A stretch of 24,295 nt of DNA from a virus (lineage: Duplodnaviria; Heunggongvirae; Uroviricota; Caudoviricetes). The notes below the pieces were generated by a model that did not search any database, was not told the origin of the DNA, and saw nothing but the letters and a program-made list of their open reading frames with translations. This document shows, in pieces, positions 1 to 24,295 of the stretch (position 1 is the first letter of the stretch; each line of letters starts with the position of its first letter). The stretch is taken from IMG/VR virus record IMGVR_UViG_3300042259_000129; one strand, 5' to 3'. The translations under genes were made by a program, and so were the position numbers.

Positions 1-745
1 ATTCTTTCTTTTTAGAATCATAAATCCTATTAATATCTAATTTGGTTAATTGAGCATCTACACGTTTGGCTAATTCATCTTCAGCCATTTCTAAACTCAA
101 ATAAACAACATTATGACCTTTCATCATCTGGCGAACAGCCATATTTACCATAAGGTTGGATTTTCCAGCATGCATCGCAGCTACAATTACTGAAAGAGTA
201 TAAGGAGGTAATCCACCATTTAGATATTCATCTAATTGAGGAAAATACGTGGGAAGTCTTTCATTTTCAGCGGAAAACATCCTTTTTAGTCGTTCAGACA
301 GATCACCCCAATAATCTAACCCAATTTGCTTCTTTAGAGTTTTTGTTAAAGCATTTTCAATATATTCCCGAGCTTTAGAAATATCTTGTTTCTTTTTAAC
401 AAGATCAACACTATCCATAATAGCGTATTTGAAAGCAGACTCCTTAAGTCATTTTTCAGTCTGCTCATATAGAAACATCTGATTCGATACTTCTACTTGC
501 TCAACGTCTTCTAAATATTTTTTAATTTCATTTGGCTTCTTAGCTGAATTAATAATGATATCTTTTGTAGGAAGTTCTATATATTGTTGATAATATTCTT
601 TTACAATAGTAAAGATTTCAGATGCTTCTAGATTTTCAAAAAATCGTTCTTCTGTTTCTGAAGACAACAGGGTACAAAAATGCTTGTCCTCAATGAACGA
701 TTTTAAAATGACTTTTTCCAAATACTCTTGAGATAAAACTGACAT
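1..745 (-). CDS. gp41: Replicative DNA helicase, T4 gp41/DnaB-like (runs off the window edge; one in-frame TGA=Trp at 449-451)
   Basis: The track ORF stops at TGA (TEK*), but the frame stays open to base 1: TEK[W]LKESAFKYAI...FPQLDEYLNGGLPPYTLSVIVAAMHAGKSNLMVN...VVYLSLEMAEDELAKRVDA (Walker A-like GKS and SLEM motif). GAGGAG RBS upstream of the ATG at 745. Confidence 0.93.
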
Positions 746-785
746 TAATTTTAGATTCTCCTCTTAAATATGTTCTTCTTATTCA

Positions 786-814
786 TATTTAATTTGGTGG
801 AAAGTAAATGTAAA
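786..814 (-). promoter_or_regulatory. Sigma70/T4-early-like promoter for the helicase (TTTACA-17-TAAATA)
   Basis: Same TTTACA box that recurs in intergenic gaps at 1174, 7241, 8643, 9209, 12125 and 16805; the -10 is imperfect. Confidence 0.45.
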
Positions 815-849
815 TATGGAAAAATAAGTTATTAAAATAATTAAACTTT

Positions 850-1020
850 TTAGAAATCTTAGAAATCCTAAGAAAATGATGTATAAAACATTACGTTTTT
901 TTAGTGGAATTCGAGATTTTCTCGTAAGGTATTGAAATGATTAGGAAAACTAAGATTTTGGCGGATTTCTAAGTTATTGAAATAATTAAGCTTTCGGAAA
1001 ACCCTCAGAATCTCGAGATT
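850..1020. repeat. Cluster of short direct and inverted repeats in the divergent intergenic gap
   Basis: TTAGAAATC tandem (850-867); CTTAGAAATCC (858-868) inverted at 963-973; CGAGA-TTT-TCTCG (912-924); palindrome AATCTCGAGATT (1009-1020); 17/20 direct repeat at 925 and 970. Confidence 0.6.
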
Positions 1021-1173
1021 TCCGGACTTATTTCCATATAGTGTAAAAATACCACCATATTTTTAACTTTCCCTGTTTACATCTTATCCGGAATAGGTTA
1101 GTTAATATATTAACTTGGTACGGAGGGTATAGTATATAGAATTATATTGATTGGTGAAACAATAAAATAATAG

Positions 1174-1202
1174 TTTACAAAGTATTTGAATTTTGATAAT
1201 CT
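1174..1202 (+). promoter_or_regulatory. Early-type promoter GTTTACA-17-TAATCT with extended -10 TG
   Basis: TTTACA 1174-1179, 17 nt spacer, TGnTAATCT; lies 36 nt upstream of the ATG at 1239. Confidence 0.55.
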
Positions 1203-1238
1203 GAATTCATCAAATCAATTAAACAATTGAGGTTTGAA

Positions 1239-1907
1239 ATGAATTACAAAGAATTGATCAAAATGGTTCATCCTGATCTGAATCCTAATATTAAGGATGC
1301 TGGGGTAAAAGTTACTGAGATCATGAAGAATAAGAATGACCCCTCTGAACTTATGAGGCTTGCCATTCAATGGGGATTGATCAAAGGAGAACAGAAAACT
1401 CAACATACATATCGTCAGAAAAAATCTGATAATCTTTGGGCAAAATTTGATTTTGCAAAACATAGCACAATATTTAAATCTGGAATGAGAGCTAGATTTA
1501 AGGATAATAGAGGTATTCACGAAGTTTGGTTTATTAAGTCTTATAAGAGTACAGTTTATTTTACTAATGGATCTGGTATATTTACAATTAATCGCTCGCT
1601 CCAAGATCTCGATGGAAAATTTGAAATTTTAAGATCTCGTATTAATGATCTCTATAGGTGGGAAATTAAATATTGGAAAGATGAACTTAAGAAGATTAGA
1701 AAAAGTACACCTAAAAATTCTTCTAAGGTAACATTTGAATCTTTAGGTATTGAACCCCATAAGTATTATATGGGTAAGTTTATCGTTACCTATCGTGGAG
1801 TGGAATATGAACTTTTTCGAACAAATGCTCGCTGTGCTTTTATCAATTATAATGGAGAAGAAAAGAGAATTCTCCTCAAGTCTATTACAAAAATTCGGAG
1901 GAAGTAA
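1239..1907 (+). CDS. Hypothetical protein with an N-terminal truncated J-domain-like HPD segment
   Basis: YKELIKMVHPDLNPNIKDAGVKVTEI resembles J-domain helix II-HPD-helix III. ATG at 1239 follows GAGG, preferred over the track TTG at 1227. Confidence 0.6.
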   Translation: MNYKELIKMVHPDLNPNIKDAGVKVTEIMKNKNDPSELMRLAIQWGLIKGEQKTQHTYRQKKSDNLWAKFDFAKHSTIFKSGMRARFKDNRGIHEVWFIKSYKSTVYFTNGSGIFTINRSLQDLDGKFEILRSRINDLYRWEIKYWKDELKKIRKSTPKNSSKVTFESLGIEPHKYYMGKFIVTYRGVEYELFRTNARCAFINYNGEEKRILLKSITKIRRK

Positions 1908-1909
1908 AT

Positions 1910-2434
1910 TTGAATTACATTTTTATTATTAATGGTTCCGGTACCTCGGGTAAAGATACAGTTGTTGATTTTGTTAGAAATAATTTTTCAAAATATTTTA
2001 ATATCTATAATGTTTCATCTATTGATAAAGTCAGAGAAGCTGCAAAACTATTAGGGTGGACTGGATCAAAAGATGAAACGGACCGGGAATTTCTCCATCA
2101 ACTTAAAATGATTGCAAGTAAATTCTATAATCATTCACTCCTTTATATGCTAAGTTCTTTGAAAGATTTTGAATCTCCCTATATATGTTTTTTTCATGTT
2201 CGAGAACCTAAAGAAATTGAAATCTTTAAAGAAAGTCTTTTGAACTCACCAACCCCTGTGTTTACAATCCTTATACAACGTAATAATAATAAAGTATTCA
2301 GTAATGATGCAGATTCTAATGTTAAAAACTATAGATATGATTATATTATTGATAATAATGGTTCCAAGTATGATCTTGAATGTAAAGTAGTTAAACTTTT
2401 TAATAAAATCTTAGAAGGAACATTTAATGGATAA
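1910..2434 (+). CDS. P-loop nucleotide monophosphate kinase-like protein (T4 gp1-like dNMP kinase family)
   Basis: N-terminal GSGTSGKDT P-loop, HVREPKE segment and C-terminal DYIIDNNG typical of phage dNMP kinases. Confidence 0.65.
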   Translation: MNYIFIINGSGTSGKDTVVDFVRNNFSKYFNIYNVSSIDKVREAAKLLGWTGSKDETDREFLHQLKMIASKFYNHSLLYMLSSLKDFESPYICFFHVREPKEIEIFKESLLNSPTPVFTILIQRNNNKVFSNDADSNVKNYRYDYIIDNNGSKYDLECKVVKLFNKILEGTFNG

Positions 2435-2447
2435 TTGAGAGCAAGAT

Positions 2448-2876
2448 ATGCATTTAGGAATAATTGAAAGAGCTATAGAAGAAGCTCGATCGTCGGAGTA
2501 TCATCCGTATAAGATGGGAGCTGTGGTTTTTAAGGGACCTCGAATATTATCGTCTGGACACAATGAAATTCGCGGTAATGGTAAAATTCACCCCAAATAC
2601 AAATATTTTGATAATACGATTCATGCTGAACAATCCGCAATTCTTAATTTAAAACATTGGAATAAAGCTAAGAATGCTGATATTTTGATTGTTCGGATAA
2701 ACAATTCAGGGAAGTTTTCTTTGGCTTACCCGTGCCCTATGTGTCAGGGATTTTTAAAATTTCTTGGTATTAATAAGGTTTACTTTTCTAATAGAAAGGG
2801 TAATATTACCTTTGTAAAGGGAAGAGATCTTTCAGAAGATAATTATGAAAATTCTTGGAAATTGGAAGGTAAGTAA
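2448..2876 (+). CDS. Zn-dependent cytidine/dCMP deaminase-fold protein
   Basis: HAE and PCPMC zinc motifs; MGAVV...GHN N-terminal motif; substrate not determinable from sequence. Confidence 0.85.
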   Translation: MHLGIIERAIEEARSSEYHPYKMGAVVFKGPRILSSGHNEIRGNGKIHPKYKYFDNTIHAEQSAILNLKHWNKAKNADILIVRINNSGKFSLAYPCPMCQGFLKFLGINKVYFSNRKGNITFVKGRDLSEDNYENSWKLEGK

Positions 2877-3070
2877 TGAAAGTATGTATTGAACTCTTGT
2901 CAGGACCATATCCCTATAAACAACCGACTCAAGAATCAATTCAAAAGAATATTGATGCTATTCAAAGAGTAATTGAGGGTAATACACATGTCAGTGATAT
3001 GGTGTTGCTGAATGATACCAAATCAATATTAGTTGCAATCCAAAAACATCTACCTAATGAGGTGTACTAA
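2876..3070 (+). CDS. Hypothetical protein (64 aa)
   Basis: TAATG overlaps at both ends, in operon. Confidence 0.7.
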   Translation: MKVCIELLSGPYPYKQPTQESIQKNIDAIQRVIEGNTHVSDMVLLNDTKSILVAIQKHLPNEVY

Positions 3071-3675
3071 TGAAAAAATGCGAATTTGAAATTTTACCCA
3101 GGCAATTTGGGAAGACAGCTTCGTTTATTTCTTTATATAATAAACTAAATCATAATTTACAACACCCCATTAATGTTGTAGTGCCAACACACCCATGTAA
3201 AAGGGTATATAATGATGCTGGTATCGATGTTTTTACAATTCAAGAATTTATTTACAACATAAGGTCCAATACTCGTGGTAGAATATGTAAATGTAGTAAT
3301 CTATTTTTAGATGAATTTTTTCTATATAATGAAACACAACAATACATTTTATATGATGAATATGTAAAATATGTAGAAGATACCGTCTATATTAAAACTA
3401 GTCCTGTTAGAAGATATAATAAAAAACTTATAGATCTTTGTCGTTATTTAAAACAAATTAGTAATTTATGTTTGGACTATATTGATATGGATGTTGAATT
3501 CCACGATACAGAGAAACAAAATGACTTTAAATATTTATATGGTAGTTTTTTAACAGACCCCAACACAACAATTTATTCTTATTATGATGACTTTAAAAAC
3601 AGGTTATCAGAAGAACAATTTAAAACCCAAATTTTTGGACAATTTTTTATTAGTGAGGATACTAAAACATGTTAG
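3070..3675 (+). CDS. Small terminase-like P-loop ATPase-domain protein
   Basis: PRQFGKT Walker A, LFLDEF Walker B, C-terminal EEQFKTQIFGQF; only 201 aa. Confidence 0.55.
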   Translation: MKKCEFEILPRQFGKTASFISLYNKLNHNLQHPINVVVPTHPCKRVYNDAGIDVFTIQEFIYNIRSNTRGRICKCSNLFLDEFFLYNETQQYILYDEYVKYVEDTVYIKTSPVRRYNKKLIDLCRYLKQISNLCLDYIDMDVEFHDTEKQNDFKYLYGSFLTDPNTTIYSYYDDFKNRLSEEQFKTQIFGQFFISEDTKTC

Positions 3676-5534
3676 ATAAGTTAAATTTAATGTGTGAAGA
3701 TGATATCATTGAATTGCTAAAAGATGCAGACAATGCATATTATAATTCTGAAACATCGATGTTCTCAGATGAATTTTATGATGAATTAAAAGATAAAGCT
3801 CAAATGCTTTACCCCGATAATGAATATTTTCAATCAGTTGGCGCTCCAGTTCCAACAAAATCTCAAAAGATTAAGCATGATTATGTTCTTGGCTCTCTAA
3901 AGAAGTTTAAAACCGATACAATTTCTTCTTGGATAAAGAAATTTTCAAGTGATGAATTTTTTTGTATTATGCCAAAACTCGATGGTGCATCTATTTTTGT
4001 ACGATATGAAAATGGAGAACTTGTTTTAGCAACGACTCGTGGGGATGGCCACTTTGGATTTGATATTACACATAAAGCTTTGAAGTTTCTCCCAAAGAAA
4101 ATCAAAAACAAAAACCGGGTCGATCTTCGCGGTGAATGTCTTTTAAACAAAAATATCTTTGCTTCTCTAGGATTTTCAAATACTCGCAATGGTGTTGCCG
4201 GTCTCCTTAATAAGGATGGTGTTGAAGGTTGTGAAAACATTGATTGTTTGTTTTATGAATATATTAATTCAACTAATGAATCTTTAATTGTTGATTTTAA
4301 TGAACTTACAGAAATGGGTATTGATGTAGTAGAATATCACCTTCTTTCAGAACTTAAAGTTGAAGAGCTTAAAAGTATTTTGGTTTCAATGAAGATTGAT
4401 TACTGTTATGATTTAGATGGTCTTGTTATTTGCCCAACAAATCATAAGCGAGAAAATGTAGAACGACCCGAGAATAAGATTGCGTTTAAAGTAAATTCTG
4501 AAGGAATTGAAACTGAAATTGATTATATTGAATGGAATGTTTCTCGAACAGGAAGAGTAGTTCCAATTGCAATTTTCAAATCTCCTGTGCCAATAGACGG
4601 TACAAATGTTTCTAAAGCCACTGCTCATAATGCTAAGTATGTTTTAGACAACAAGATTGGAATTAGTTCAAAAGTAAAGATTGTAAAATCTGGTGATATC
4701 ATTCCTCAGATTATTGAAGTAACAATCCCCGCTGCTAAAATGGATATGGCAAAGAATTGCCCTTCATGTGGATCTGAACTTGAGATGAAGGGCGTTGATC
4801 TTATTTGTAAAAATAAAAAATGCTATGAACAAGTAATTGGGTTTTTAGAATATTTTTTTAGAGTACTTGGTGCTGAAAATATTTCTTCTCAAACTTTTAG
4901 AAATCTCAAAGTTAAAGATTTAACTGAAGTTTTTGAATTAACAGTTGATAATATTATGAATAGAGATGGATTTGGAGAAACCAGTGCTTCAATGATCATT
5001 GATGAAATTCATAAGTCTATCAAAAATGTAAAGCCTGAAACTTTGCTTGCAGCAGTAGGTGTACCCTTTTTTGGTACAAAAAACACAAAGAAGTTTATTG
5101 ATTCTTTAGATAAATCTTTAACTTCGAAAGAAAAATTTGAAAGTATTTTTTCTCTTAATGAAAATCTATTTACAAGTATTCCAGGCTTTGGTAAATCTAT
5201 ATTCAAATCGGTTGTCGACAGTCTTGAAAACGTTGCTCTTGTTTATCGTATCTGTCAAAACTATGGTTTAACTTTTAATGAGGAAACTCTAAGTGAGGAA
5301 AGTTCCAATGTCGTAAAGGTAACAGTTACAGGAAAGGGCCCTGCTTCTCGCAAAGAACTTGAAAAGCTTTTTAAGGAACATGGCTTTGAAATTATTAATT
5401 TTTCCAATGAAACAGAAATTTTGGTGTGTGATGATTTAAATTCTTCTTCATCTAAAATGAAAAAAGCAAAAAAGAATAATATTAAAATTGTAACCTATGA
5501 GGAGTTTTTTAATGAATATCAGATGTCTATGTAA
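3669..5534 (+). CDS. ligA: NAD-dependent DNA ligase
   Basis: Domain Ia DNAYY...SDEFYDEL, adenylation motif PKLDG, RGE, AFK, SRTG, C4 zinc finger CPSC...C...C, C-terminal BRCT-like region. Confidence 0.95.
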   Translation: MLDKLNLMCEDDIIELLKDADNAYYNSETSMFSDEFYDELKDKAQMLYPDNEYFQSVGAPVPTKSQKIKHDYVLGSLKKFKTDTISSWIKKFSSDEFFCIMPKLDGASIFVRYENGELVLATTRGDGHFGFDITHKALKFLPKKIKNKNRVDLRGECLLNKNIFASLGFSNTRNGVAGLLNKDGVEGCENIDCLFYEYINSTNESLIVDFNELTEMGIDVVEYHLLSELKVEELKSILVSMKIDYCYDLDGLVICPTNHKRENVERPENKIAFKVNSEGIETEIDYIEWNVSRTGRVVPIAIFKSPVPIDGTNVSKATAHNAKYVLDNKIGISSKVKIVKSGDIIPQIIEVTIPAAKMDMAKNCPSCGSELEMKGVDLICKNKKCYEQVIGFLEYFFRVLGAENISSQTFRNLKVKDLTEVFELTVDNIMNRDGFGETSASMIIDEIHKSIKNVKPETLLAAVGVPFFGTKNTKKFIDSLDKSLTSKEKFESIFSLNENLFTSIPGFGKSIFKSVVDSLENVALVYRICQNYGLTFNEETLSEESSNVVKVTVTGKGPASRKELEKLFKEHGFEIINFSNETEILVCDDLNSSSSKMKKAKKNNIKIVTYEEFFNEYQMSM

Positions 5535-5712
5535 TGCACTAAAGGAATTTCGTCCTATTAAAACTAATAATCCCGTTACATATCAGTGCATGATTTGTAA
5601 GAAAATTTATCTTGAAAAGGACATCAATCTTGAAGGAAGAAATATTGTTGGTATTGAAAAAACAGATAATCCCTTTCTTTCATATGTAAGAAAACCTACT
5701 AAAAAGGATTAA
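5512..5712 (+). CDS. Small putative zinc-binding protein
   Basis: CLC and CMIC pairs; ATG at 5512 preceded by GAGGAG; overlaps the ligase end. Confidence 0.5.
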   Translation: MNIRCLCNALKEFRPIKTNNPVTYQCMICKKIYLEKDINLEGRNIVGIEKTDNPFLSYVRKPTKKD

Positions 5713-5715
5713 AAA

Positions 5716-5973
5716 ATGAAAGTATCTTTAGAAAGGTCTATTGGAATTCCTACAGTTCCATTTGCCCCTCTGAAGGTTACAGTATCACTAGAGGGAGATG
5801 TTGAGTCTCCCTCTGATATTGAAAAACTTTCAGAAAAATTAGATTCAATTATGGCTATTGAGATTATGAAAACCCTCGATGAATCGGTAACAATCACCGA
5901 TGTTGGATATAAGAAGTATCTCGAAGGTTTGAAGAATATGTATAATGACATTGTTAATGAATTGGAGAAATAA
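5716..5973 (+). CDS. Hypothetical protein (85 aa)
   Basis: In-operon ORF with AAGGA upstream; fills the gap exactly. Confidence 0.7.
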   Translation: MKVSLERSIGIPTVPFAPLKVTVSLEGDVESPSDIEKLSEKLDSIMAIEIMKTLDESVTITDVGYKKYLEGLKNMYNDIVNELEK

Positions 5974-5974
5974 T

Positions 5975-6751
5975 ATGAAAGTAACTCTAATTGGATATTC
6001 TACTCCAAATATAACACAAACTTATAGTGAGGAAGATTCCCCAGATAAAGTTGTGTACACTGCGTTAGCTCAATGTTATAATGATTCTTTTAATCCAATG
6101 AATAAGCAATATCCTGAAGTTGAAACAATGAAGAAAACTATTAAGCACGTACTTTCTTCTGGTCATCATTCTGTTGCTGAACATGTTTCTTTTACATTTC
6201 TAATTGAGGGTGTTAGTCGAGCATTAACACATCAACTTGTACGCCATAGAATTGCAAGTTATTCTCAAAAGAGTCAAAGATATGTAAATGAAAAGAATTT
6301 TACATATGTAACTCCATATACAATTCAAAAGAATAAGTTTCTAAATGAAACATATAACAATTTCATGAATAATATTATGGAATTTTATACAAGACTTACT
6401 AATAACGGAATCCCAGCAGAAGATGCTCGATTTATTCTTCCTAATGCTTGTACTACTAATATTGTTATGACAATGAATATTCGTTCTCTTGGAGAATTTT
6501 TTGCTAAAAGAATGTGTAAGCGTGCTCAGTGGGAAATTCGAGAAATGGCTGAAAAGATGTCTTCAATGTGTCGAGATATCGCACCAACATTTTTTAAAGA
6601 TAACAAGCTTGGATTTGCTGCCTGTATTCAAAATGGATTTTGCAAGGAAGCAAAATCTTGTGGTATGATGCCAAAGCTTTCAGATTTACAAAATGCTTAT
6701 AAGATTGTAGAAAATAGTAAAAAAGAAATGGAGGAAAAATTTAGTGTTTAA
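5975..6751 (+). CDS. thyX: Flavin-dependent thymidylate synthase
   Basis: ThyX motif RHRIASYSQKSQRY, GHHSVAEH, EDARFILP, RAQWEIR; start moved to the ATG at 5975 after GGAG. Confidence 0.96.
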   Translation: MKVTLIGYSTPNITQTYSEEDSPDKVVYTALAQCYNDSFNPMNKQYPEVETMKKTIKHVLSSGHHSVAEHVSFTFLIEGVSRALTHQLVRHRIASYSQKSQRYVNEKNFTYVTPYTIQKNKFLNETYNNFMNNIMEFYTRLTNNGIPAEDARFILPNACTTNIVMTMNIRSLGEFFAKRMCKRAQWEIREMAEKMSSMCRDIAPTFFKDNKLGFAACIQNGFCKEAKSCGMMPKLSDLQNAYKIVENSKKEMEEKFSV

Positions 6752-7235
6752 ATTTTGTAAAGTTCGTGATGTAAAGAGCCCCAATCGTGCTAATCCTACA
6801 GATGCAGGCCTCGACTTTTTCGTTCCAAATTGATCTAAAGAATTTGTTAATGATCTAAGGGATAAGAACCCTGGACTATATATTACCGAAGAGGGTATTC
6901 ATCTAGCTCCTCTTGAAAGGGTTCTTATCCCTTCTGGAATTAAAACATGGTTCCCTGATTATCATGCACTTATTGCTTTTGATAAATCTGGCGTAGCTTC
7001 TAAGCAGGGAATTACTCTTCTTGCAAAAGTGATCGACACGGATTATTTAGGCGAGCTTCATCTCAATCTTGTTAATGTTTCAAAAAATGAGCAAACAATT
7101 AAATATGGGCAAAAGATTACACAATTTATTCTTATCCCAATTAGTTGTAGTATGCCTGAGGAAATTGGTATTGATGAGTATGAGAAGCGAGAAACTTCAC
7201 GAGGCTCTGGCGGATTTGGTTCAACAGGAGTTTAA
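6744..7235 (+). CDS. dut: Trimeric dUTPase, 163 aa (in-frame TGA=Trp at 6831-6833)
   Basis: GTG start after GGAGG; DAGLDF (motif I) lies upstream of the TGA, and KSG, IDTDYLGE, ITQ and RGSGGFGSTG (motifs II-V) lie downstream in the same frame. Confidence 0.93.
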
Positions 7236-7240
7236 ACTTA

Positions 7241-7286
7241 TTTACATTTAAGAATATGGGGATTAGATTATTTTTATCTAATCCCC
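7241..7286 (+). promoter_or_regulatory. TTTACA-17-TAGATT promoter overlapped by an 11-bp inverted repeat (possible terminator or operator)
   Basis: Arms GGGGATTAGAT 7258-7268 and ATCTAATCCCC 7276-7286, 7 nt loop, followed by only TTTG. Confidence 0.55.
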
Positions 7287-7298
7287 TTTGGAGTTTAT

Positions 7299-7976
7299 AT
7301 GTCAAAAATTGTTTTATTTGAAGGTCTTGACAATTGTTTCAAAACTACTAATGTAAAAGCTCTTTTTAATTTTTGGAATAAACAAAACAAAACAGCTCAT
7401 GTCCTTCATTATTCAGGAGTCAAATCTATAAATTCTGAAGAAGCTAGAAAACTTTCAAAACAACTTTATACAGAGATGTTCGAAGCTTTTGAATATTTTC
7501 ATTCCAAAAACATTAATATAATTTGTGATAGATCACATCTTGGGGAAAATGTGTATTCTAGATATAGAGGGTATAATCCTTCATATCTATGGAAGCTTGA
7601 AGATCAATTTATGAATCATAAATTTTGGAATGATGTTTATTTAATTTTCCTTAGAGATAATATTGATAATACTCTTGAAAGAGATGATGGGTTATCACTT
7701 TCTACAGATAGAAATGATAAGATTTTTGAAAGACAGAAGTTTGAAGAAGCTGTTATGATAACAGAAATTCCTAACAAGAAAATTATTGATGTCACAAATA
7801 AATCTAAAGAAGAGATTCTAAATGAAATTTTGATCTTTTTAAAAGAAGATGATATTGAACAAAAGGCCATGAAAACCCTAGATACTATTATTGAAAAACT
7901 TAATTGTTGTAATGATGTACAGAGTAAAAAATATGATGAATCAGTATATGAAATTGTAAAACTTATACGAGGTTAG
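7299..7976 (+). CDS. Thymidylate kinase-like nucleotide kinase
   Basis: IVLFEGLDNCFKTT P-loop variant and ICDRSHLGENVY (DR motif). Confidence 0.8.
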   Translation: MSKIVLFEGLDNCFKTTNVKALFNFWNKQNKTAHVLHYSGVKSINSEEARKLSKQLYTEMFEAFEYFHSKNINIICDRSHLGENVYSRYRGYNPSYLWKLEDQFMNHKFWNDVYLIFLRDNIDNTLERDDGLSLSTDRNDKIFERQKFEEAVMITEIPNKKIIDVTNKSKEEILNEILIFLKEDDIEQKAMKTLDTIIEKLNCCNDVQSKKYDESVYEIVKLIRG

Positions 7977-7978
7977 AG

Positions 7979-8638
7979 ATGAAAACTATTAAGGATATTA
8001 GAATCGCTTTTATTGACAAACTCAAAAATAAAGAGTTTGTCATTGATAAGACCGGGGTTAAAACAATTGAATTAGTTGGTGAATCCTATATTGCAGATGA
8101 AGAAGTAATTTTTGGTTCTCTTAATATGGACTATGCTGCTCGTGAAGTAGAATGGTATGAATCACAGTCACTAAATGTGTATGATATTCCAAAATGCCCA
8201 CAGATTTGGAGACAAGTTTGTGATAAAAATGGATATATTAATTCAAATTATGGCTGGATAATTTATTCTAAAGAAAATGGTGAACAATATAAAAATTGTC
8301 TAAGAACATTACGTAGAGATAAAGATTCACGTAGAGCAATGATGATTTATACAAGACCTTCAATGCAATGGGAATATAATGTAAATGGAATGAGCGACTT
8401 CGTTTGTACTAATTCCGTTCAGACACTTATTCGAAACAATAAATTACATTATATCCTTAATCAACGTTCGAGCGATGCAGTATTTGGGGCCAAGAACGAT
8501 TTGTATTGGGCAAGACATGTACATAATAAACTTCTTAAAGATCTGAAGATTGATTATCCAGAATTGGAACTTGGAGATCTCATTCACCAAGTGGGCTCAA
8601 TTCATGTTTACGAGCGCCATTTCCATCTTGTGAAATAG
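7979..8638 (+). CDS. gp42: dCMP hydroxymethyltransferase (T4 gp42-like, thymidylate synthase fold)
   Basis: DKTGVKTIE, INSNYGW, DSRRAMMIYTRPSMQ, GMSDFVCTN (catalytic Cys), RSSDAVFGAKND (Asp at the dCMP-specificity position) and GSIHVYERHF follow the T4 gp42 sequence as I recall it, end to end. Confidence 0.9.
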   Translation: MKTIKDIRIAFIDKLKNKEFVIDKTGVKTIELVGESYIADEEVIFGSLNMDYAAREVEWYESQSLNVYDIPKCPQIWRQVCDKNGYINSNYGWIIYSKENGEQYKNCLRTLRRDKDSRRAMMIYTRPSMQWEYNVNGMSDFVCTNSVQTLIRNNKLHYILNQRSSDAVFGAKNDLYWARHVHNKLLKDLKIDYPELELGDLIHQVGSIHVYERHFHLVK

Positions 8639-8642
8639 TTTG

Positions 8643-8671
8643 TTTACATTATAGGGAAATTTGAATAAATA
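8643..8671 (+). promoter_or_regulatory. Early-type promoter candidate GTTTACA-17-TAAATA
   Basis: Recurrent GTTTACA box directly after the gp42 stop; imperfect -10. Confidence 0.4.
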
Positions 8672-8700
8672 AATTATTACTTAAACACATTGGAGTTTTT

Positions 8701-9258: not shown

Positions 9259-9300
9259 ACATTTAAGAGGTTAGAATGACCTTCTATGTATTTTGGTTTT

Positions 9301-9308: not shown

Positions 9309-9327
9309 TATAGAAGGAGATCTAATA

Positions 9328-15040: not shown

Positions 15041-15044
15041 AATA

Positions 15045-15332: not shown

Positions 15333-15335
15333 TTT

Positions 15336-16226
15336 GTGAGTCAAGAAATTTGGTGTTTCAAGTATGCACCACAATCATTAGATGAGATGATTCTCTCTGA
15401 TGATAAGAAAGAAGTTCTTAAAAAGGTTATTAAGGAATGTCCTAATGTCCTTCTAGCAGGGAAACCTGGCACAGGAAAGGGCACCTTTATGGATATTTTC
15501 CTTAAGGAAACTGGTTATGATTTCCTTAAGCTAAATATGTCTGATGAGAATTCTGTAGATACTGTTAGAGATACAATTAAAACGTTTGCAACCTCTTTAG
15601 GTTTCACTAATAAGAAAATCGTTTATGGAAATGAATTTGATGCTGTAAGTTTACAGGGTCAATCAGCAATTCGCGATTTACTAGAATCAGTTCAGAAGAA
15701 CTGTAGATTTTTCTTTCTAGCTAACTATCCTCAAAAGATTATCGATCCAATTAAATCTAGATGTCAAACTATTACACTAAATGAGCCGCCAAAAGATCAA
15801 CTTCTTAAATTTTGTTTTAAGATTCTTAAAGCTGAGAATATTGAAGTCAAAAATAAGTCTGGTGTTGTTGAGATCATCAAAGCTCACTACCCAGATATAA
15901 GACAAATTGTTAATACTCTACAACTTAATTGTGTAAATGGTGTTTTCGATACTGTAAAGATTTCAACTACTTCTGATGTGTTTGAAAATATCTTTACTTA
16001 CATGAAAGAAGCTGATATTGAAAACATTAGAAAAACTCTACGATCTGAAGGTGTTGACTATCCAGCATTGTTTAACTATCTTTATGAAAAAGCCCCAGAA
16101 GTTAAGTCGCCAGGAGATTTTGTAATTGCTTTAGGTGAGTATTTATATAGGGATGCTTTTGTTGCTATTAAGGAAATCAACTTTATGGCATTTTATTTTG
16201 AAATGATGAAGAAGGGAGTATTATAA
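15336..16226 (+). CDS. gp44: Clamp-loader AAA+ subunit (T4 gp44/RFC-like)
   Basis: WCFKYAP, GKPGTGK, NEFD, SRC motif, YPDIRQIVN. Confidence 0.93.
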   Translation: MSQEIWCFKYAPQSLDEMILSDDKKEVLKKVIKECPNVLLAGKPGTGKGTFMDIFLKETGYDFLKLNMSDENSVDTVRDTIKTFATSLGFTNKKIVYGNEFDAVSLQGQSAIRDLLESVQKNCRFFFLANYPQKIIDPIKSRCQTITLNEPPKDQLLKFCFKILKAENIEVKNKSGVVEIIKAHYPDIRQIVNTLQLNCVNGVFDTVKISTTSDVFENIFTYMKEADIENIRKTLRSEGVDYPALFNYLYEKAPEVKSPGDFVIALGEYLYRDAFVAIKEINFMAFYFEMMKKGVL

Positions 16227-16465
16227 TGATTTATTCATTAAATATGTATTCAAGAGAGCTATTAGAAGAAGCATATGATTCTCTTGGAAAAATTTATTTA
16301 AATTGTATCCCACATAAAAACGAACATATTACATATGAAAAGGATATTTATCTCGTGGAAGAGATTTTTTATAAACTATCAGGACAATCTCATGAGTCCG
16401 AAATTAATTTATATTGTTTATATGTAGGAAAAATAAATTCAACAAAAGAATTAATGAGAAAGTAA
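16226..16465 (+). CDS. Hypothetical protein (79 aa)
   Basis: TAATG overlaps on both sides. Confidence 0.7.
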   Translation: MIYSLNMYSRELLEEAYDSLGKIYLNCIPHKNEHITYEKDIYLVEEIFYKLSGQSHESEINLYCLYVGKINSTKELMRK

Positions 16466-16800
16466 TGGAAAAACAAACTATTTTTGATTTTCTCAATTCA
16501 ATCAATAACAAGAAGAAAATTGAGATCAATGAGAAGGATTTTTCTGGGTATATGGTAAGCTTATGGTTTAGTCATGCCCAAGATTGTATTGATGTAGTTA
16601 ACAGGATCAATCCCTATATCTTTAATACTCCTTCCAAAGCAATGTATGAATATTATTTTGATAAAATTTCAAAGAAGAAACGATTTATCAAATTTACGAA
16701 AAAAGAAAAAGATGAAAAAGCAAATGCAGAAAAGGAAACTTTTAAAACAATACACAATCTTTCTAAAAAGGAGATGAAATTATATAAAGATTTTTTCTAG
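16465..16800 (+). CDS. gp62: Clamp-loader small subunit (T4 gp62-like)
   Basis: FDFLNSIN...KKRFIKF pattern and position after gp44; ATG at 16465 by TAATG coupling. Confidence 0.7.
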   Translation: MEKQTIFDFLNSINNKKKIEINEKDFSGYMVSLWFSHAQDCIDVVNRINPYIFNTPSKAMYEYYFDKISKKKRFIKFTKKEKDEKANAEKETFKTIHNLSKKEMKLYKDFF

Positions 16801-16804
16801 TTTG

Positions 16805-16833
16805 TTTACATATAATATAGTTGAATATAATGT
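16805..16833 (+). promoter_or_regulatory. Early-type promoter GTTTACA-17-TAATGT
   Basis: Intergenic, upstream of the AAGGAG RBS of the 16859 gene. Confidence 0.5.
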
Positions 16834-16858
16834 TAATAAAAAATGTTAAGGAGATCCT

Positions 16859-17614
16859 ATGATTGTTAATGTAAAGAAGTTTAATAATTTTCTACGAAAG
16901 GCAACATTGAATTTTTCAATTAATTCTTTCAGTTGTGATATTAGTCCAGAGCGTGTTGTTTCTCGAATGATCACAAAATCTAATGATGCTATTGCGTGTC
17001 TGGATTTTGAAAATGACATTTTTAAGGAAAATAAGGAAAATCTTTCTTTTAATTTTATTGATCCAAATAGCTCTATTGTCCCTTATCTTAATCTTGTTGA
17101 TTCTGAGGAAGCTGAACTTATTGCAAGGGATGAAAAACTTATTCTTAAGAATGGTAAGCAGAAGTCAAATATTTTCTTTTGTGAAGAAATGATTCCTTCT
17201 AAGTTTGGCGCATCTGAACCCAAAGTGCAGTTTTCCCCATTTATCACAATTGATGTTAATGAAGAATTTCTAGAAACTTTCAACAAAATCAAAAAAATTG
17301 GAAACAAGTTCGGAAAAATCTATTTTACTGTAATAAATAATATTCTACAAATGGAGACCACCGATAAGAAAAACAAGTTCTCTAATGGTCTTTCCTTTGA
17401 CATTGCAGAAAATGTAAATTCTAAAGATATTTCAATTTGTTTTGATTTTGGTAATATGAATAATATGTTTGCTGTTCTAGATGATGATGTTTCTTACAAA
17501 TTAGATTTTATTTATGTTAAAGAAAAGGATATGGGTCTAATGACGTGCAAACGAGCTAACCCAAATTCAGAAAGCATTGAAAGTTACTATTTGACATCTA
17601 AGATGGAGGTTTAA
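16859..17614 (+). CDS. Probable sliding clamp (T4 gp45-like)
   Basis: 251 aa, predicted alternating beta/alpha pattern, adjacent to clamp-loader genes; assignment rests mostly on size and context. Confidence 0.55.
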   Translation: MIVNVKKFNNFLRKATLNFSINSFSCDISPERVVSRMITKSNDAIACLDFENDIFKENKENLSFNFIDPNSSIVPYLNLVDSEEAELIARDEKLILKNGKQKSNIFFCEEMIPSKFGASEPKVQFSPFITIDVNEEFLETFNKIKKIGNKFGKIYFTVINNILQMETTDKKNKFSNGLSFDIAENVNSKDISICFDFGNMNNMFAVLDDDVSYKLDFIYVKEKDMGLMTCKRANPNSESIESYYLTSKMEV

Positions 17615-17869
17615 GTGAAACTAATTAGAATTGAGTATATTTTAAACAATAACAATTGGAAGTGTAATGTTATTGCTAAAGATACTAAAGATGGAGTAAG
17701 TTTTTTAGAAAAATATCTGAGGGCACCCTTTAGTATTACATCAACTGAAGAAGTGTGTGATATTCATGGAATCAGTGATACTATGAAGGATAATTTTTTA
17801 AAGACTGTTGAAGCAAAGGTTGAAACAAAGAGTGAACCTAAGTCAAAGTTGGGAAGGCCAAAGAAATAA
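17615..17869 (+). CDS. Hypothetical protein with a basic C-terminal GRPKK tail
   Basis: GTG after GGAGG; last gene of the + strand block. Confidence 0.7.
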   Translation: MKLIRIEYILNNNNWKCNVIAKDTKDGVSFLEKYLRAPFSITSTEEVCDIHGISDTMKDNFLKTVEAKVETKSEPKSKLGRPKK

Positions 17870-17903: not shown

Positions 17904-18461
17904 TTAGTTAACATTCTCAAGAGAGCATCAAAAGATAGTCTCTGCCATGACAGCCACTTCTACCCACTCACCAGTTTCCTCATCGAGGACCTCCTTCGTC
18001 TCGCCAGTATCAACAAGATAGGCTTCTTCAGGCAACACCATCTTCACATGGCTAAAGTAGAAACCCATAAAGTCACCAAAAAGAGCCGCACGGCCCTCAA
18101 GGATGTCTTCGTAGGGCACACCAGCATCGAGGTCACTCTGAATAAGCGCAGCAGCTACAGGGTGCATCGTACTCAGATCAGGCTCAATCCCCATCATCAG
18201 CGCACCAACAACAGGATCGGTAGCGAGGCCGTCAACTTCCCACGAAGAGATGTCGAAGGCTTCAGCGTGTTTAGCCTTAGCGTCTGCAAACTCTCCCTTG
18301 TAGAAGTGGATGCAGCGAAGTTTGTAGGTTGTGTCGTCCACGGTGAACACACCGCAATCCTGGGAGTTCTCCCAATGGATACCGTAAAGATACCCAGAGG
18401 GAGAATCTACACTCACTTTATAGTAGGCCGCAAAGCGCGGTCCTCGGTCTATGAAAGGCAT
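17904..18461 (-). CDS. Fibre-associated hypothetical protein (177 aa to the TGA at 17928; 185 aa to the TAA at 17904 if TGA=Trp)
   Basis: TAATG-coupled to the fibre gene; about 53% G+C on line 18121-18180; acidic; a chaperone or assembly role is only a positional guess. Confidence 0.75.
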
Positions 18462-21400
18462 TATGCCACCATCCTTGTTTCGATTTCGGTGTCGGACATG
18501 CCGCCCTTGTTGCTTACCATGACTCTGCGGAACCAGATTGGAACAGTGTTACCATAAGCGAGTCGCAGGTGGGTTAAGGTGTTAAAGCTACCATCGAAGG
18601 ATATCCAACTACTCCATTGGATAGCAGAGTTGATGCCGATGCGTTTATATCCAACTCGGAATTGTGTACCGTCAGCATTAGTTTGGATAAGTTTGATATG
18701 GCGTTCATAACGGTTCCACGAGAATCCTGCGACGTTTGTACCATTTGTCCCATCCCAATCTTTGACAATAACAGGAGTTGTATAAATATTGTCATACCCA
18801 TGTCCAAGAAAGCTGTTCCATGTAGAACCCGTGTTCGGGGCGAGGATGTTGGCCCACGTTGACATACCCAACCCAGCCAAATCCCCGCTCCCAACACCCA
18901 TCGTCACTTCAGCCGCCACCGTGCATGTAGCAGGTTTGAGTTTCTGGACGGAGATATTGTCAATGATTACTGTATTTCCAGTTGATCCATATAGATTACC
19001 AACACGTACATAACAAGAGGCTGACGTTGGCGTAAAACTAAATGTAATAATACCAGAGCCTGTCTGCGATATATTTTTATACTCACCACCACTTAATGTT
19101 GAACCCAGGCGAATATTAAGACTTCCAGGGTTTCCGCCAAGAAGTTCCACTGAGAAGATATATGTCTTCCCAACTTCTAGTGTTAATAGCTGATATACAT
19201 ATCCAGAATACGCATCACTATTTGTTATTGTTAACAGTCCATCGGATACAGTTTGGACGCCATAGTTGGTCACCGTCCACCCACTCACATCACTATCAAA
19301 CGTCCCATTCGTAACCAACTCCACCCCATCAGTTTCACTCTTCTCAAAGCACTGCATGAGAGGAGAGGAGAGGCGTTGGACGGAGATGTTGTCCCATTCA
19401 GAGTAGAGTCCATCACCCATGCCATAAAGTGTAATATAAAGGACTGACGACTCTGCTACAAAGTCATGTACATTAACTCCATCACTAGTAATTGACGCTA
19501 TTTGTGAACTACCAGCAGAATAGTACCCTAGTCTAATTTCTGGCGAAGCGGCTGTTGGAATCGTTACGCCTGTGAACCTATACTTTGCACCAACAATAAG
19601 GCTCACTGTCGTACTTGCAGCATATGCCCCATCACCAGCGTTACCAGACACATGAAGTTTACCATCAACTACACTTAGTATACCATAACTTACAGAGGTC
19701 CACCCATCAGTTGTACTATCGAAAGTACCATTATACACCAACTCCACACCATCAGGCTCTTCGGCCATATCGAAGTAGATACCGTTGTTGCCAGAGGTTC
19801 CAGCAGCGGAGGCTACGGTTGTTCCTGGGGGGACGTAGGGCATGGGGGCTGATGTGGCGGTGAGTTGAGGACATGTTATATAACAATAGAAGCCACCAGC
19901 ACCACCAGAAGAGTTAGGATAAATATAGGTCCGCAAAGAATTACCTACTGTAAATCCACTGATCGTACAGGATAATTCATACCAGCCATCATCTAATTCA
20001 ACCAAACCAAAAGTTCCACTGCCAGATTTAATGGTTATATTAAGGGTGTCCCAATTAAATCCTATTTGAACAACATTAGAGCGAAGTGTTGCGTCCCAAA
20101 ATAGCAGGTCTGTATTAAATGCAGTGCCTCTTTTGAGTTTAACACTAAATGTTGCGTTACTAGATGGAAAGGTGGCCACTGTCTGAAGACTGTATGCTCC
20201 AGTTGATAGGGATTCTGCCTTGAAAACAGGTGAGTTCCCAAACCTAAGGTTCGTAAGCTCATAATCTACTAAACCACCACCCCATAATGTTGAGGCAAGG
20301 TTTTCGCTACCAACCGCAAGCAAGTTCCCATAACTCGGCCCACACCACACACCCTTATCACCATGAATAGCAGGCACGTAGTCTGTTAGTTCGTTAACAG
20401 TGGTGAGCGGGGGTACGTACGGGGCGGTAAAAACTGTTGTTAGCTGTGGGTTTTGAATGCTAATTCCAGAGACACCATCCCCGAGATAATTTCTATTTGA
20501 TGCCCAATTGGTATCCTTTGCAACTCTAACATCAAGAACAATACTGGTTGCAGATGTAGCTACTCCACTTACATATACGGTAATTGATCCATCATTATTC
20601 CTTATAGACCTGAAGACAGGTGAGCCAGAGACGCTAGCCAATGCGCCAGTAATTAAATCCACAGACACAAAGTAAACGAGGCCGCCGCCATTCAAGCCAA
20701 CATACGCAAAATTTCTACCATTCGGTTTAATAGTAATACTGCCAGTATAACTCACGCCAATAACGGCTGTGATACCACTTGTAACATAATGAGCTTCGGC
20801 TAGTACTGATTCGGTAACTTTGTACCAATCCCCATCAGTGGTTATCGTCGCCCCTGTTTTGCTCCAAGTTGTAATGTCATTAGAGGTAATGTGGTTCGTA
20901 TACCCAGGCCCACTCCACCAAAGCCGCCCATCACCATTAAGGTCAGTAGGTTCATTCAGCCCAACATAGCTCCCATCTTCAGCATACATCCTGTCACTGT
21001 AAGACCAGTTAGGATCGGGACCAACAGCACTACGCTGCCCACCGTCTTCTACGCGATAGAGGAGCTTAACATCATCGAACCGTGTAACCTTCCCATACAG
21101 ACTATCGCTCTGGGGAATTTCAATCCACCACAATCCAATGTTCAAATATACTTTCTTAGGCTCATACGCATCCACAATACAGAAAGTGCCCTGCTGGTAG
21201 TCACCAACATTGGGAAGGTTCTGAGAACGAATGACAGTGTAGGGCATCCAATCTCTATCAATCTTACCCTGACTGTCTGCACGCACAACCTTGTCGGCGG
21301 CGGGGGAGGTAGAGGTTTCAGACTGATTGACAGCGTTGATCTGCGTAGTTGTTACGCCATGAGGATTAGCTGTGCTCGCAATGTGAGACTGAATGTTAGA

Positions 21401-21736
21401 GTTTGCAGGTTCAGCACCAACCTGAGAGTAGGTAACGCCATGAGGATTAGCTGTGCTCGCAATGTGAGACTGAATGTTAGAGTTTGCAGGTTCAGCACCA
21501 ACCTGAGAGTAGGTAACGCCATGCGGGTTACTGGTGTTTGCTATATGACTTTCAAAATCTGATATATCAGAAATATCTATACCCGCTGCTTGTCACCCAG
21601 TATCTGTTCCATAATATAAATGATTTATATCCTCGACATAAATCATTCGACCTTCATCAGTGGATTGTCATGTAGGAAGTGTAGACACCTTTTGGTGAAT
21701 AAACTTACCCTTCATTTCTATACCGTGAAATTTCAT
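18461..21736 (-). CDS. Long tail fibre / receptor-binding protein, 1091 aa (TGA=Trp at 21668-21670 and 21593-21595)
   Basis: True start ATG 21736 after GAGGA, in frame with track ORF 18461..21286; HIxxxxNPH repeats, two ELVxNGTFD...W...DNISVQ beta-sandwich modules, Gly/Ser/Thr-rich. Confidence 0.85.
21354..21523. repeat. Perfect 81-bp tandem duplication (two units plus 8 bp) encoding HGVTYSQVGAEPANSNIQSHIASTANP
   Basis: ACGCCATG recurs at 21354, 21435 and 21516 with identical intervening sequence. Confidence 0.95.
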
Positions 21737-21847
21737 CTATTTGTCCTCAAAAAGAAAGAAGTTAGAATTTCATTTTCGTGTTAACTTTTTAGGTTAAAAA
21801 TAACAGGACTTGGGGATCCCTCGAAAATAAAATTTTGATTATAAATT

Positions 21848-21855
21848 TATTTATA
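21848..21855 (-). promoter_or_regulatory. T4 late-promoter-like TATAAATA in the gap upstream of the fibre gene
   Basis: Exact consensus, intergenic, correctly oriented; chance occurrence is plausible. Confidence 0.3.
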
Positions 21856-21859
21856 AAAA

Positions 21860-22636
21860 TTAATACTTAATACAGGGAAGCAATGCAATGTTTCTTGGTC
21901 TTGTTTCAGTTCCTCCCGTGTATCCAATACAACCTGGATCACTTGCTGCTCTTTCTGCATCATCAGCATACAATCCCGGGGCATACAACTGAGGACTGTT
22001 CGAACCTCTATCATTGCCATATTGTGTATGTCTATGACTTTTTAGTTCATCACTTTGAAAACTTCCAAAGCTTCGCCCAGAATCAATTCCTCTACCAGCA
22101 TCTCAACACCTAATAAATTCGCCTCTAAGATCAGGAACCCCGAATGTTGTAGTTCCATTTCCCGCCCCAAATGTTGTTCCAATTGCAGAAAATAATGAAG
22201 AATAAGTAGTTCTTGAAACAATAGAGCCGTTACAAATTAAATATCCTACCGGAGCAGTATTTCTTGCAAAATAAAGAATGGCTCCAGGGGGGACTAACTG
22301 ATTTTGAATTAAATCAACAGTATCATGAGGGTCATTTGTATCCGCTACATGGGCATTAAATGTAGATAAAGGTGTTGCTCCAATTTGAACAGAGGTCACT
22401 TGATGAGGATTATTAAAATCATTAATGTGATTATTAATTTCATCAATAGCTGTGTCTACATCATCTGAAATAAGTAGTCGTACTCACTCAGTTTGAGATC
22501 CGTAATAAACAACACCACCCATTTCTGAGCTTATATAAACATATCGACCAATATCAGAGTCAACATCAAATTCTGGAAGAGCATCAAGTTTTTCCAGAAT
22601 CATCGGTCCATCCATTTCTATTCCATAAAATTTCAT
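21860..22636 (-). CDS. Tail collar-domain fibre protein, 258 aa (TGA=Trp at 22484-22486 and 22103-22105)
   Basis: PPGAILYFA...APVGYLICNG...LFSAIGTTFG...PDLRGEFIRC[W]DAGRGIDSGR...GGTETRPRNIALLPCIKY is the canonical collar domain; ATG after GAGGT. Confidence 0.93.
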
Positions 22637-22646
22637 TTCTTACCTC

Positions 22647-23684
22647 TTAAAAATAGCCAAAGATTTTAACAACAGCATTTGGATTTGATCCAGCTTTAAT
22701 CTTAACTTCATTTTCATCAATACTTTCAATTTCTGTTAATGTTAAAACTTTCTTTACATCCGTATCCCAACATGTTACAGAAGGGTATTCCTGATTCAAA
22801 TTGTGAACAATATTGAAAGAATATACTCCGCCACCTTCATCAGTCCATGCTGTAATAGTTTGGGTAAATGTAGAATTTGAAAATCTTTCATGAATATCAT
22901 AAATTGTTTTATTGCTTACAATTCTATTATAAACAACATCATCTGAGCTGGGATCTACCTCATATAGTCCATGAGCATAGCCTGAGGGAGCTGCAGATAG
23001 AGACATTGTTTCAAAAATAAAATTTCTATGATCTTCTCAACCTTTAGCAATTGTATTATTTAAAATCTTATTAAAGGTTGGATCCTCATTATAAGCATTA
23101 ACAGGTTGAAGATTGTGAGGATTTGTAGGATCAGGAGAAATCAATATTGAATTAAATACAGCATTTTTATGCGTTTGTCATCCATTTGCAAGAAAATTAT
23201 TAACAACTTTATTATATGTTTCATCGGTCTGTGATAAATCAACATTTGTTAAACCATGAATAGGAAGTCCATTATAAACGACATCATGGTTAGTATGCGT
23301 ATAAAAAATATTTGCTAAAGCATTACTAATAAGTTTATTTTTATATGTCGAAGATGTATCAAATTCATCTACACCCTCAACAAGAGGAAAAACATCAATA
23401 TAATCAATAATGCCGGAAGAAATGCCATCTCTTTCCCAAGCTATTTTAAATTTAGTACCCCTGGAATATCCAAGAATTGTATCTTCTTCATCTGCAACTC
23501 AAAATTCAAAATAACCATTGGATGTTGTAGTTAATTGGGGCGCCACATTGAGTGATGTTGTTAAATCCTCTGAAGTAAAAATATTAGCAGGTGTACTTGT
23601 TCCAGCTAAAAATACAGAAACACTAGCACCATTAATAGGCTGCCCTTCCTGATTTAAAAGAAATTGTCAAAAGTGATATCTCAT
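22647..23684 (-). CDS. Virion structural protein, 345 aa, with head-binding-like N-terminus and four internal repeats (TGA=Trp at 23667, 23499, 23178, 23037)
   Basis: GQPINGASVSVFLAGT...NGYFEF[W] N-terminus, repeated VD...YNK..N..A.G[W]..H units, C-terminal W...HNL module; ATG after AAGGA. Confidence 0.8.
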
Positions 23685-24295
23685 TTATAACTTCCTTATA
23701 GATACTCTATAGAATATTGTCATTGTAAAATTTTGAGATTTATAAATGTTTGAACAAAGAGTTTCAAATAAAACTTCATCCAAATCTGTCAATATCTCAA
23801 TTTTATTTATAGTCATTAGAACTTCTTTTGGCACATCTAATCTAAAATATATAAAATTTTCATCATTTCACATTTCAGTAATTAGACTTTCATAAGTCAA
23901 ACTTGTTAAATTATTTGACAATTTAAACTTTGTAAGTTTAAGAATATCTGTAAAAATAGGTGAACCTATTGCTACTAATACAGCATATCCGGAAATTTCC
24001 CTATCAAATTCAATAATAGTATTATTTTCATCTAATAGAGTTATATTCTTAGGATATATTTTTTTATTTTCATCATTATATATATTTACTAAAACACCCG
24101 AATACCCTAAATTGTGGTTTATATTTCAAACATTTGAAGTTGTATTATTATGAAGATATGTATATCTATCTATAATAATTTGTCCTGTTTTAATACTAGT
24201 ACTTACTTTATTTACTTCATCTAATTTTATATATGATGGAATAAACTCTTGTTTTTCTAAATCAAATATTTGTGTATAAACTTCTTTTACATTTA
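23685..24295 (-). CDS. C-terminal part of a virion structural protein (starts outside the window; TGA=Trp at 24126 and 23868)
   Basis: 203 codons open apart from two TGA; V[W]NINHNLG motif; its TAA abuts the next ATG. Confidence 0.8.

Follow-up and report, generated by a model that had tools for sequence, protein, structure and literature searches.

TGA-to-tryptophan recoding spares early genes and follows late promoters in a T4-like phage lineage from wastewater

The stretch of DNA analysed here, referred to as the window, comprises 24,295 nucleotides (24.3 kb) of IMG/VR virus record IMGVR_UViG_3300042259_000129 (Caudoviricetes), is part of a T4-like phage of about 166 kb from wastewater, and was studied for its in-frame TGA codons, which are read as tryptophan (Trp). 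TGA drifts neutrally behind late promoters, in genes for the baseplate, fibres, portal, terminase, lysis cassette, homing endonucleases and some recombination functions, and it is purged from the early transcription units and from the genes of the most abundant virion proteins. The agent that decodes UGA is not a recognisable tRNA(UCA), release factor or tryptophanyl-tRNA synthetase (TrpRS).

The window was recounted under genetic code 4, with gene classes assigned from Pfam, and contains 21 in-frame TGA codons; all 30 complete gene models stop at TAA or TAG and none ends in TGA. Replication and nucleotide-metabolism genes hold 3 TGA and 41 TGG codons, the three TGA lying in DnaB (449-451), dUTPase (6831-6833) and a glycosyltransferase (13785-13787), versus 11 TGA and 4 TGG in the native virion genes (PAAR, the fibre N-terminus and three tail genes; Fisher test, p=1.4e-6) and 6 TGA and 1 TGG in a GIY-YIG endonuclease (p=3e-5). 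An earlier note on this DNA had reported this partition by gene class from a hand count (3/39, 11/4 and 6/1), and the recount bears it out. As a control for third-position G+C (GC3), the two-fold codon pairs ending in A or G (Lys, Glu, Gln, Leu-TTR and Arg-AGR) were scored in the same genes. These pairs are 71% A-ending in the early genes (GC3 0.22), where only 7% of Trp codons are TGA (binomial p=7e-19), whereas Trp codons do not differ significantly from the control pairs in the structural genes (73% TGA vs 79% A-ending) or in the endonuclease (86% vs 87%). Because A-ending pairs are common everywhere and TGA is rare only in the early class, late genes use TGA freely while early genes specifically avoid it, and GC3 alone, which the note had named as an alternative, does not explain the difference.

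A sister phage, IMGVR_UViG_3300028601_000019 (164,754 bp), served as the stand-in for genome-wide tests of the lineage; its gene order is syntenic with the window and a topoisomerase subunit is 86% identical at the amino acid level. Both ends of the sister record are matched at 100% identity by a 16-kb contig from a different sample, which spans the 1,503-bp gap between them, in nrdD; the genome is therefore closed at about 166.3 kb, and the CheckV completeness of 69% was rejected as an underestimate. Two further contigs were used: L021, a strain 99.3-99.97% identical to the window outside the fibre tip, and L023, placed in the lineage by gene content and wastewater occurrence rather than by sequence comparison.

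Across 224 plausible open reading frames (ORFs) the sister genome has 258 TGA and 398 TGG codons, and 44% of its genes carry an in-frame TGA. Usage is bimodal: 38 of the 99 genes with at least three Trp codons are free of TGA, vs 10.8 expected, and a two-component mixture fits far better than a single rate (likelihood-ratio statistic 121). With classes labelled by PHROGs or Pfam, the 28 DNA metabolism genes have 19 TGA and 100 TGG, the 16 structural genes 65 and 39 (p=5e-13 between the two), and the three homing endonucleases 15 and 2, so that the bias, taken as TGA/(TGA+TGG), holds beyond the window. The early minus-strand block at 114-149 kb, which encodes a polymerase, RNA ligases, a kinase and many small ORFs, has 128 TGG and four TGA codons. 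Three of these four belong to an endolysin/holin-like operon directly behind the T4-type late promoter motif TATAAATA, and the fourth probably lies upstream of the true start of its gene, which leaves the lysis operon with the only credible TGA codons of the block.

Codons at conserved Trp sites were compared by aligning window genes to their sister orthologues. Among 23 such sites in TGA-bearing genes there are 13 TGA/TGG swaps, 7 sites with TGA in both phages and 3 with TGG in both. Where the window gene is free of TGA, both phages have TGG at every one of the 25 conserved sites, while 33% of the conserved Lys, Glu and Gln sites of the same genes differ between A and G at the third base and 14% have G in both; the chance of 25 TGG/TGG sites is about 3e-22. 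Exchange occurs in both directions within DnaB (site 99 is TGA in the window and TGG in the sister, site 146 the reverse), and the glycosyltransferase has 1 TGA and 7 TGG in the window and 6 and 2 in the sister. The frozen TGG of the early genes and the frequent swaps in the permissive ones therefore show directly that TGA is synonymous with TGG in this lineage, and that selection has purged it from the early gene set while leaving it neutral in the other. dUTPase likewise needs TGA read as sense, because its TGA, at codon 30 between catalytic motifs, downstream of motif I (AGLDF), and the only one in the plus-strand nucleotide-metabolism block, is also TGA in the sister.

In the window, the sister and L023 alike, a T4-type late promoter lies upstream of most TGA-bearing genes. 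In the sister, 16 of 44 occurrences of TATAAATA fall 3-60 nt ahead of a start codon, vs 3.9% expected (p=5e-12), and this start-proximal share is the highest among all permutations of the motif's letters. Its occurrences in the window lie 19 nt ahead of the endonuclease and upstream of the unit formed by g18, the glycosyltransferase and PAAR, of the fibre gene and of the tail genes. Just past the sister early block, at about 150-152 kb, a homing endonuclease (5 TGA, 1 TGG) and gp32 (2 TGA, 3 TGG) have late promoters of their own, and on L023 TGA-bearing genes again follow TATAAATA while early-type genes (Acb3, Tad3, GNAT and CCA enzyme) are TGG-only. Comparing the k-mers ahead of TGA-rich genes with those ahead of TGG-only genes gave no useful signal, since the majority of genes belong to operons.

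On balance we consider it probable, by a modest degree, that the phage, in which UGA stands for Trp where this is tolerated, infects a standard-code host where UGA becomes readable only later, so that TGA acts as a translational lock atop the late promoter. UGA would terminate translation at the start of infection and turn readable afterwards, and each TGA codon would then be a second lock, with its greatest effect on late or toxic genes located inside early transcription units. A residual cost of decoding late in infection would explain the avoidance of TGA in the capsid and tail tube genes. To make UGA readable, the phage could target host tRNA-Trp or RF2, or employ an RNA invisible to current tools. 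That the lineage switches UGA to Trp by an undescribed mechanism, with no phage tRNA, release factor or synthetase, and uses it as a late-gene lock on T4 late promoters is a more tentative proposal, which we regard as possible but rather doubtful.

Several observations weigh against this reading. DnaB and dUTPase carry TGA without a perfect late-promoter motif, and in the sister TGA also occurs in gp32, UvsX, UvsW and gp46, even though genes of these kinds function ahead of or during replication in T4; another two sister genes, of exonuclease families, carry TGA as well. The motif TATAAATA was found upstream only of gp32 (at 97 nt in the sister and 50 nt on L023) and of none of the others tested. 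In the opposite direction, the late-promoter genes for the major capsid protein (0 TGA, 4 TGG), a vertex-like capsid protein (0 and 3) and the tail tube (0 and 5) use TGG only, which sets them apart from the other structural genes (0/12, p=2e-5), and the sister tail sheath gene is intermediate (4 TGA, 8 TGG). Timing cannot be the whole explanation, since the capsid, vertex and tube genes lack TGA despite being late, and these genes together with the TGA of DnaB, dUTPase and the recombination genes indicate that yield seems to count alongside timing. The split between replication and virion genes drawn in the earlier note is thus a real partition, but a simple division of replication from virion genes does not accommodate replication genes that need TGA or virion genes that lack it.

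The search for decoding machinery adds to these points. The closed sister genome encodes seven tRNAs (Arg-CCT, Met, Pro, Thr, Tyr, Leu-CAA and Ala), with no tRNA(UCA) among them, and none was found among the eight tRNAs of the L023 cluster. The sister has no match to the RF-1 or PCRF release-factor families (PF00472, PF03462) or to class-Ib synthetases including TrpRS (PF00579), with controls for the three families matched in 11, 11 and 14 of 14 genomes, and no TilS-like PP-loop enzyme (PF01171). The supposition that virion genes are translated only after the phage supplies a UGA suppressor or disables RF2 therefore keeps its early-versus-late partition, while its suppressor, release factor and synthetase were not found in the sister. 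Rfam searches of the window and sister gave only weak sub-threshold matches beyond the known tRNAs, with none at gathering score and no group I intron. Relaxed ARAGORN settings produced hundreds of low-score calls, a few of them with a 'tca' anticodon inside coding genes, and were treated as noise. The window cytidine/dCMP deaminase was considered as a possible tRNA editor and dropped, because its sequence matches no PDB relative and the gene belongs to the nucleotide-metabolism cluster. TGA is followed by A at the +4 position in 43% of cases vs 31% for TGG (p=0.018), an excess that probably reflects local AT content and gives no clear sign of competition with RF2. The lack of a suppressor is typical of code-4 phages, and possession of one does not define the group, because published surveys find suppressors in only 15-35% of them (10.1101/2021.08.26.457843; PMC11210395), the figure of Borges et al. 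(bioRxiv 10.1101/2021.08.26.457843) being 35% of code-4 genomes.

Beside the sister tRNA cluster, at 154038-154163 on the minus strand, tandem hairpins (GGCTA, a 10-nt stem, TCCTTC, the complement and TTTCC) lie between the cluster and a conserved 725-amino acid protein, for which no informative relatives were found. The small ORF called over these hairpins is probably not a gene.

The fibre tip of the window and its chaperone-like partner g27 form a two-gene cassette with about 52% amino acid identity to a 42-kb T7-like phage (L029:10001-14631), in which the cassette is fused to a T7 tail-fibre N-terminus. The T7-like phage uses the standard code, with 0 TGA and 130 TGG codons and three genes, including the RNA polymerase gene, that stop at TGA. 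The TGA of g27 (17928-17930; gene at 17904-18461, minus strand) is read through in the alignment with the 194-amino acid homologue of that phage, the last seven residues (CSLENVN) aligning end to end with CTLDKVN. It is therefore a sense codon and not the old stop of the donor, and the imported cassette has already gained one TGA. No useful relatives of the fibre tip and g27 were found among cultured phages or in 185,579 bacterial genomes, and no RNA data set holding the phage was listed among the sequencing runs. The L021 strain has a different fibre tip (73% identity).

Indirect evidence favours a walled, standard-code bacterium as the host. The lineage encodes a gp5-type tail lysozyme and an endolysin, which argue for a walled host, unlike Mollicutes, and the T7-like phage that has the fibre-tip cassette in common with it uses the standard code. 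At 44%, the share of TGA-bearing genes in the sister lies within the published range for recoded phages whose hosts use the standard code (26-71%) and under the roughly 90% seen where the host code is shared (10.1101/2021.08.26.457843). The even use of TGA that the note expected of a phage of a code-4 host is not what is seen. It is nevertheless conceivable, if improbable, that the host itself uses code 4, that the phage needs no machinery at all and that the TGG-only genes reflect some other constraint. Such a host would account for a closed genome without suppressor tRNA, release factor or TrpRS and for the absence of genes ending in TGA, and in one survey Mycoplasma or Spiroplasma are the hosts for 81% of the records of cultured code-4 phages (PMC11210395). 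It offers no reason, however, for 25 of 25 early sites being TGG against a 73% A-ending bias, nor for TGA being confined to fewer than half of the genes; the cell wall-degrading enzymes point elsewhere, and in the phage with the shared receptor-binding cassette TGA serves as a stop but never encodes Trp.

A different account, which we judge unlikely but better placed than a code-4 host, replaces the timer with yield tuning: UGA would be read throughout infection, but at some cost, for instance if host tRNA-Trp has to compete with RF2, and selection would strip TGA from genes whose product is needed quickly or in quantity while letting it persist in those for low-copy or toxic products. The TGG-only major capsid, vertex and tail tube genes fit this when set against the baseplate hub (7 TGA, 0 TGG), portal (2 and 0) and homing endonucleases (15 and 2), as do the TGA codons of DnaB, dUTPase and gp32 and the missing suppressor tRNA. 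Yet proteins with 7-10 TGA codons, and the tail sheath with its four, would need efficient decoding; the T4 sheath protein is present in about 138 copies per virion. Tuning by yield also leaves unexplained why some 50 early ORFs lack TGA regardless of abundance and why TGA genes inside early blocks coincide with late promoters, and the +4 context of TGA carries no clear weak-terminator signature. There is, finally, very little probability that the pattern is a mutational or mosaic artefact without function, produced by local base composition or by recent import of early modules from standard-code phages. GC3 is 0.22 in early genes but somewhat less in structural genes (0.16) and in the endonuclease (0.14), TGA fraction in the sister correlates weakly with GC3 (rho -0.43), and the fibre-tip cassette is truly imported and TGG apart from one TGA. 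However, the other A/G pairs of the sister barely differ (0.73 A-ending in zero-TGA genes vs 0.78 in TGA-bearing genes), the split stays bimodal within the GC3 band 0.18-0.24 (18 zero-TGA genes alongside 15 with at least 50% TGA), and the early genes are orthologues passed down vertically, mostly with 60-86% amino acid identity, that show heavy synonymous turnover and no TGA. The codon-pair control, the Trp-site comparison and the GC3 band thus already largely refute an artefact.

The window has 30% G+C overall, save for a 45-50% stretch at 17.9-21.5 kb, and Pfam matches give it a T4-type gene content: a DnaB-like helicase, NAD ligase, split topoisomerase II and a gp44/62-type clamp loader, with a PAAR protein, the GIY-YIG endonuclease, a tail-collar fibre protein and a nucleotide-metabolism cluster (dCMP deaminase, ThyX, dUTPase and a thymidylate-synthase-like gene). 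The topoisomerase is 33-35% identical in amino acids to those of cultured T4-like phages, megablast of the window against GenBank phages gave no match, exact-word searches for its contig among viral and metagenome contigs were likewise negative, and the DNA is present in many wastewater metagenomes. Two contigs, Ga0451661_000200 (131 kb) and Ga0451648_000175 (89 kb), span the greater part of the genome to which the window belongs. The lineage as a whole has the replication genes of a T4-like (Straboviridae-type) phage (gp44/62, split topoisomerase II, gp43-type polymerase, gp32, UvsX, UvsW and gp46/47), the virion genes (sheath, tube, gp5, gp6, portal and gp23-type capsid) and the enrichment of TATAAATA. 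A short thymidylate-synthase-family gene at window 7979-8638, possibly a dCMP hydroxymethylase, and a homologue of the T4 beta-glucosyltransferase at sister 146125-147237 suggest that the DNA may carry glucosylated hydroxymethyl-cytosine, as in T4.

At the left end of the window, the N-terminal part of the DnaB-like replicative helicase (2-745, minus strand; Pfam DnaB_C) runs off the edge and has one TGA and one TGG. The non-coding stretch at 804-1166, between dnaB and the first plus-strand gene, is 73-76% identical to four other sites in the sister genome and is a repeated intergenic cassette. The early nucleotide-metabolism and replication block follows on the plus strand (1227-9192; dCMP deaminase, NAD ligase, ThyX, dUTPase, kinase-like and thymidylate-synthase-like genes and small ORFs), with 22 TGG and one TGA; its conserved Trp sites are TGG/TGG throughout in comparison with the sister. 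The late promoter motif at 9301-9308 (plus strand) lies ahead of the ATG at 9328 of the SegE-like homing endonuclease (9328-10311, plus strand; Pfam SegE_GIY-YIG), whose TGA codons begin at 9433, 9628, 9721, 9973, 10117 and 10237. This endonuclease (9286-10311 in the synteny comparison) is missing at the equivalent site of the sister, leaving a synteny gap, and an unrelated, TGA-rich homing endonuclease lies one gene off on the opposite strand, behind TATAAATA (sister 91036-91818). The large and medium subunits of topoisomerase II (10283-13466, plus strand) have 0 TGA and 7 TGG; six of these seven sites are Trp in the sister, all TGG/TGG, and site 34 of the large subunit is TAT there. Within the 3' end of the topoisomerase gene, TATAAATA at 13319-13326 (plus strand) is kept in the sister (87321, minus strand) and heads the g18-glycosyltransferase-PAAR unit. 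The glycosyltransferase and PAAR spike tip occupy 13695-15040 (plus strand), PAAR having one TGA (14804-14806) and one TGG.

The clamp loader (gp44-like and gp62-like), a candidate sliding clamp and small ORFs (14970-17869, plus strand) contain 0 TGA and 4 TGG; the candidate clamp has no family match and is named from its position after the clamp loader. The high-GC (45-50%) fibre-tip cassette with g27 downstream spans 17904-21540 on the minus strand, with 27 TGG and one TGA, and is joined to the native AT-rich N-terminus of the fibre gene (21541-21736, minus strand), where both Trp codons are TGA (21668-21670 and 21593-21595). A late promoter motif at 21848-21855 (minus strand) lies 111 nt upstream of the fibre start codon. 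Three tail genes follow (21860-24293, minus strand), encoding a tail-collar fibre protein (2 TGA, 0 TGG), a 345-amino acid protein (4 and 3) and a 5'-truncated protein (2 and 0), and TATAAATA matches at 23804-23811 (minus strand) ahead of the second and first of them. Elsewhere in the lineage, the sister has three copies of a higher-GC TnpB (Cas12f1-like) element (5048-6409, 36846-38027 and 161567-162820) with 1-3 TGA per copy, those at 5104-6441 and 36717-38059 each about 88% identical to the third, and L023:3027-4336 holds genes of the Acb3 (anti-CBASS) and Tad3 (anti-Thoeris) families, both TGG-only, between terL and nrdDG.

The idea of an early-to-late switch in reading UGA fits the pattern but is not new, being the same as the published model of Borges et al. 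(bioRxiv 10.1101/2021.08.26.457843), in which early genes use the standard code, structural and lysis genes are recoded and a homing endonuclease prefers TGA. The Agate and Jade clades of that study resemble the present phage in reading TGA as Trp, recoding structural and lysis genes, keeping replication largely standard-compatible and favouring TGA in a homing endonuclease, as well as in an AT-rich genome, TGA not serving as a stop and recoded modules scattered over a large genome (10.1101/2021.08.26.457843). The present phage differs in being T4-like and from wastewater rather than from a gut clade, in having no suppressor tRNA, RF1 or TrpRS in the closed (sister) genome, and in that its TGA use is tied to a defined late-promoter motif and its most abundant virion genes are TGA-free. 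Block-wise dual coding is also known in crAss-like phages (Mgcod; bioRxiv 10.1101/2022.06.29.495998), which likewise combine standard-compatible stretches with stretches that need a reassigned stop, but there as two large genome halves, whereas the blocks here are small and interleaved, with single late-promoter units inside early blocks. Phages of Mycoplasma and Spiroplasma also read TGA as Trp and need no suppressor; they are expected to share the host code throughout, whereas about 40% of the informative genes of the present phage are TGA-free and it encodes peptidoglycan-degrading enzymes. In T4, hairpins that sequester the ribosome-binding sites of e, soc and I-TevI hold these late genes untranslated in early transcripts. 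Both phages thus have late or toxic genes, including homing endonucleases, within early units that are kept silent until late, but T4 uses RNA structure and late-promoter start sites, while the present phage appears to add codon meaning as a lock.

No paper describing a T4-like code-4 phage was found in the literature, and what is new here is a T4-like example of late-gene recoding, in which UGA is apparently decoded without known machinery. Gene callers that assume the standard code fragment most of the virion, lysis and endonuclease genes of this phage, as seen in the JGI calls of related contigs. The frozen TGG of early genes and the free turnover of TGA and TGG in late ones provide clean comparative evidence for selection behind partitioned recoding. 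The case also links the use of TGA with an established class of promoters, in a phage family for which the programme of gene timing is well known. Because none of the known code-change machinery is present in the closed sister genome, this lineage is well suited to learning how the suppressor-less majority of code-4 phages read UGA.

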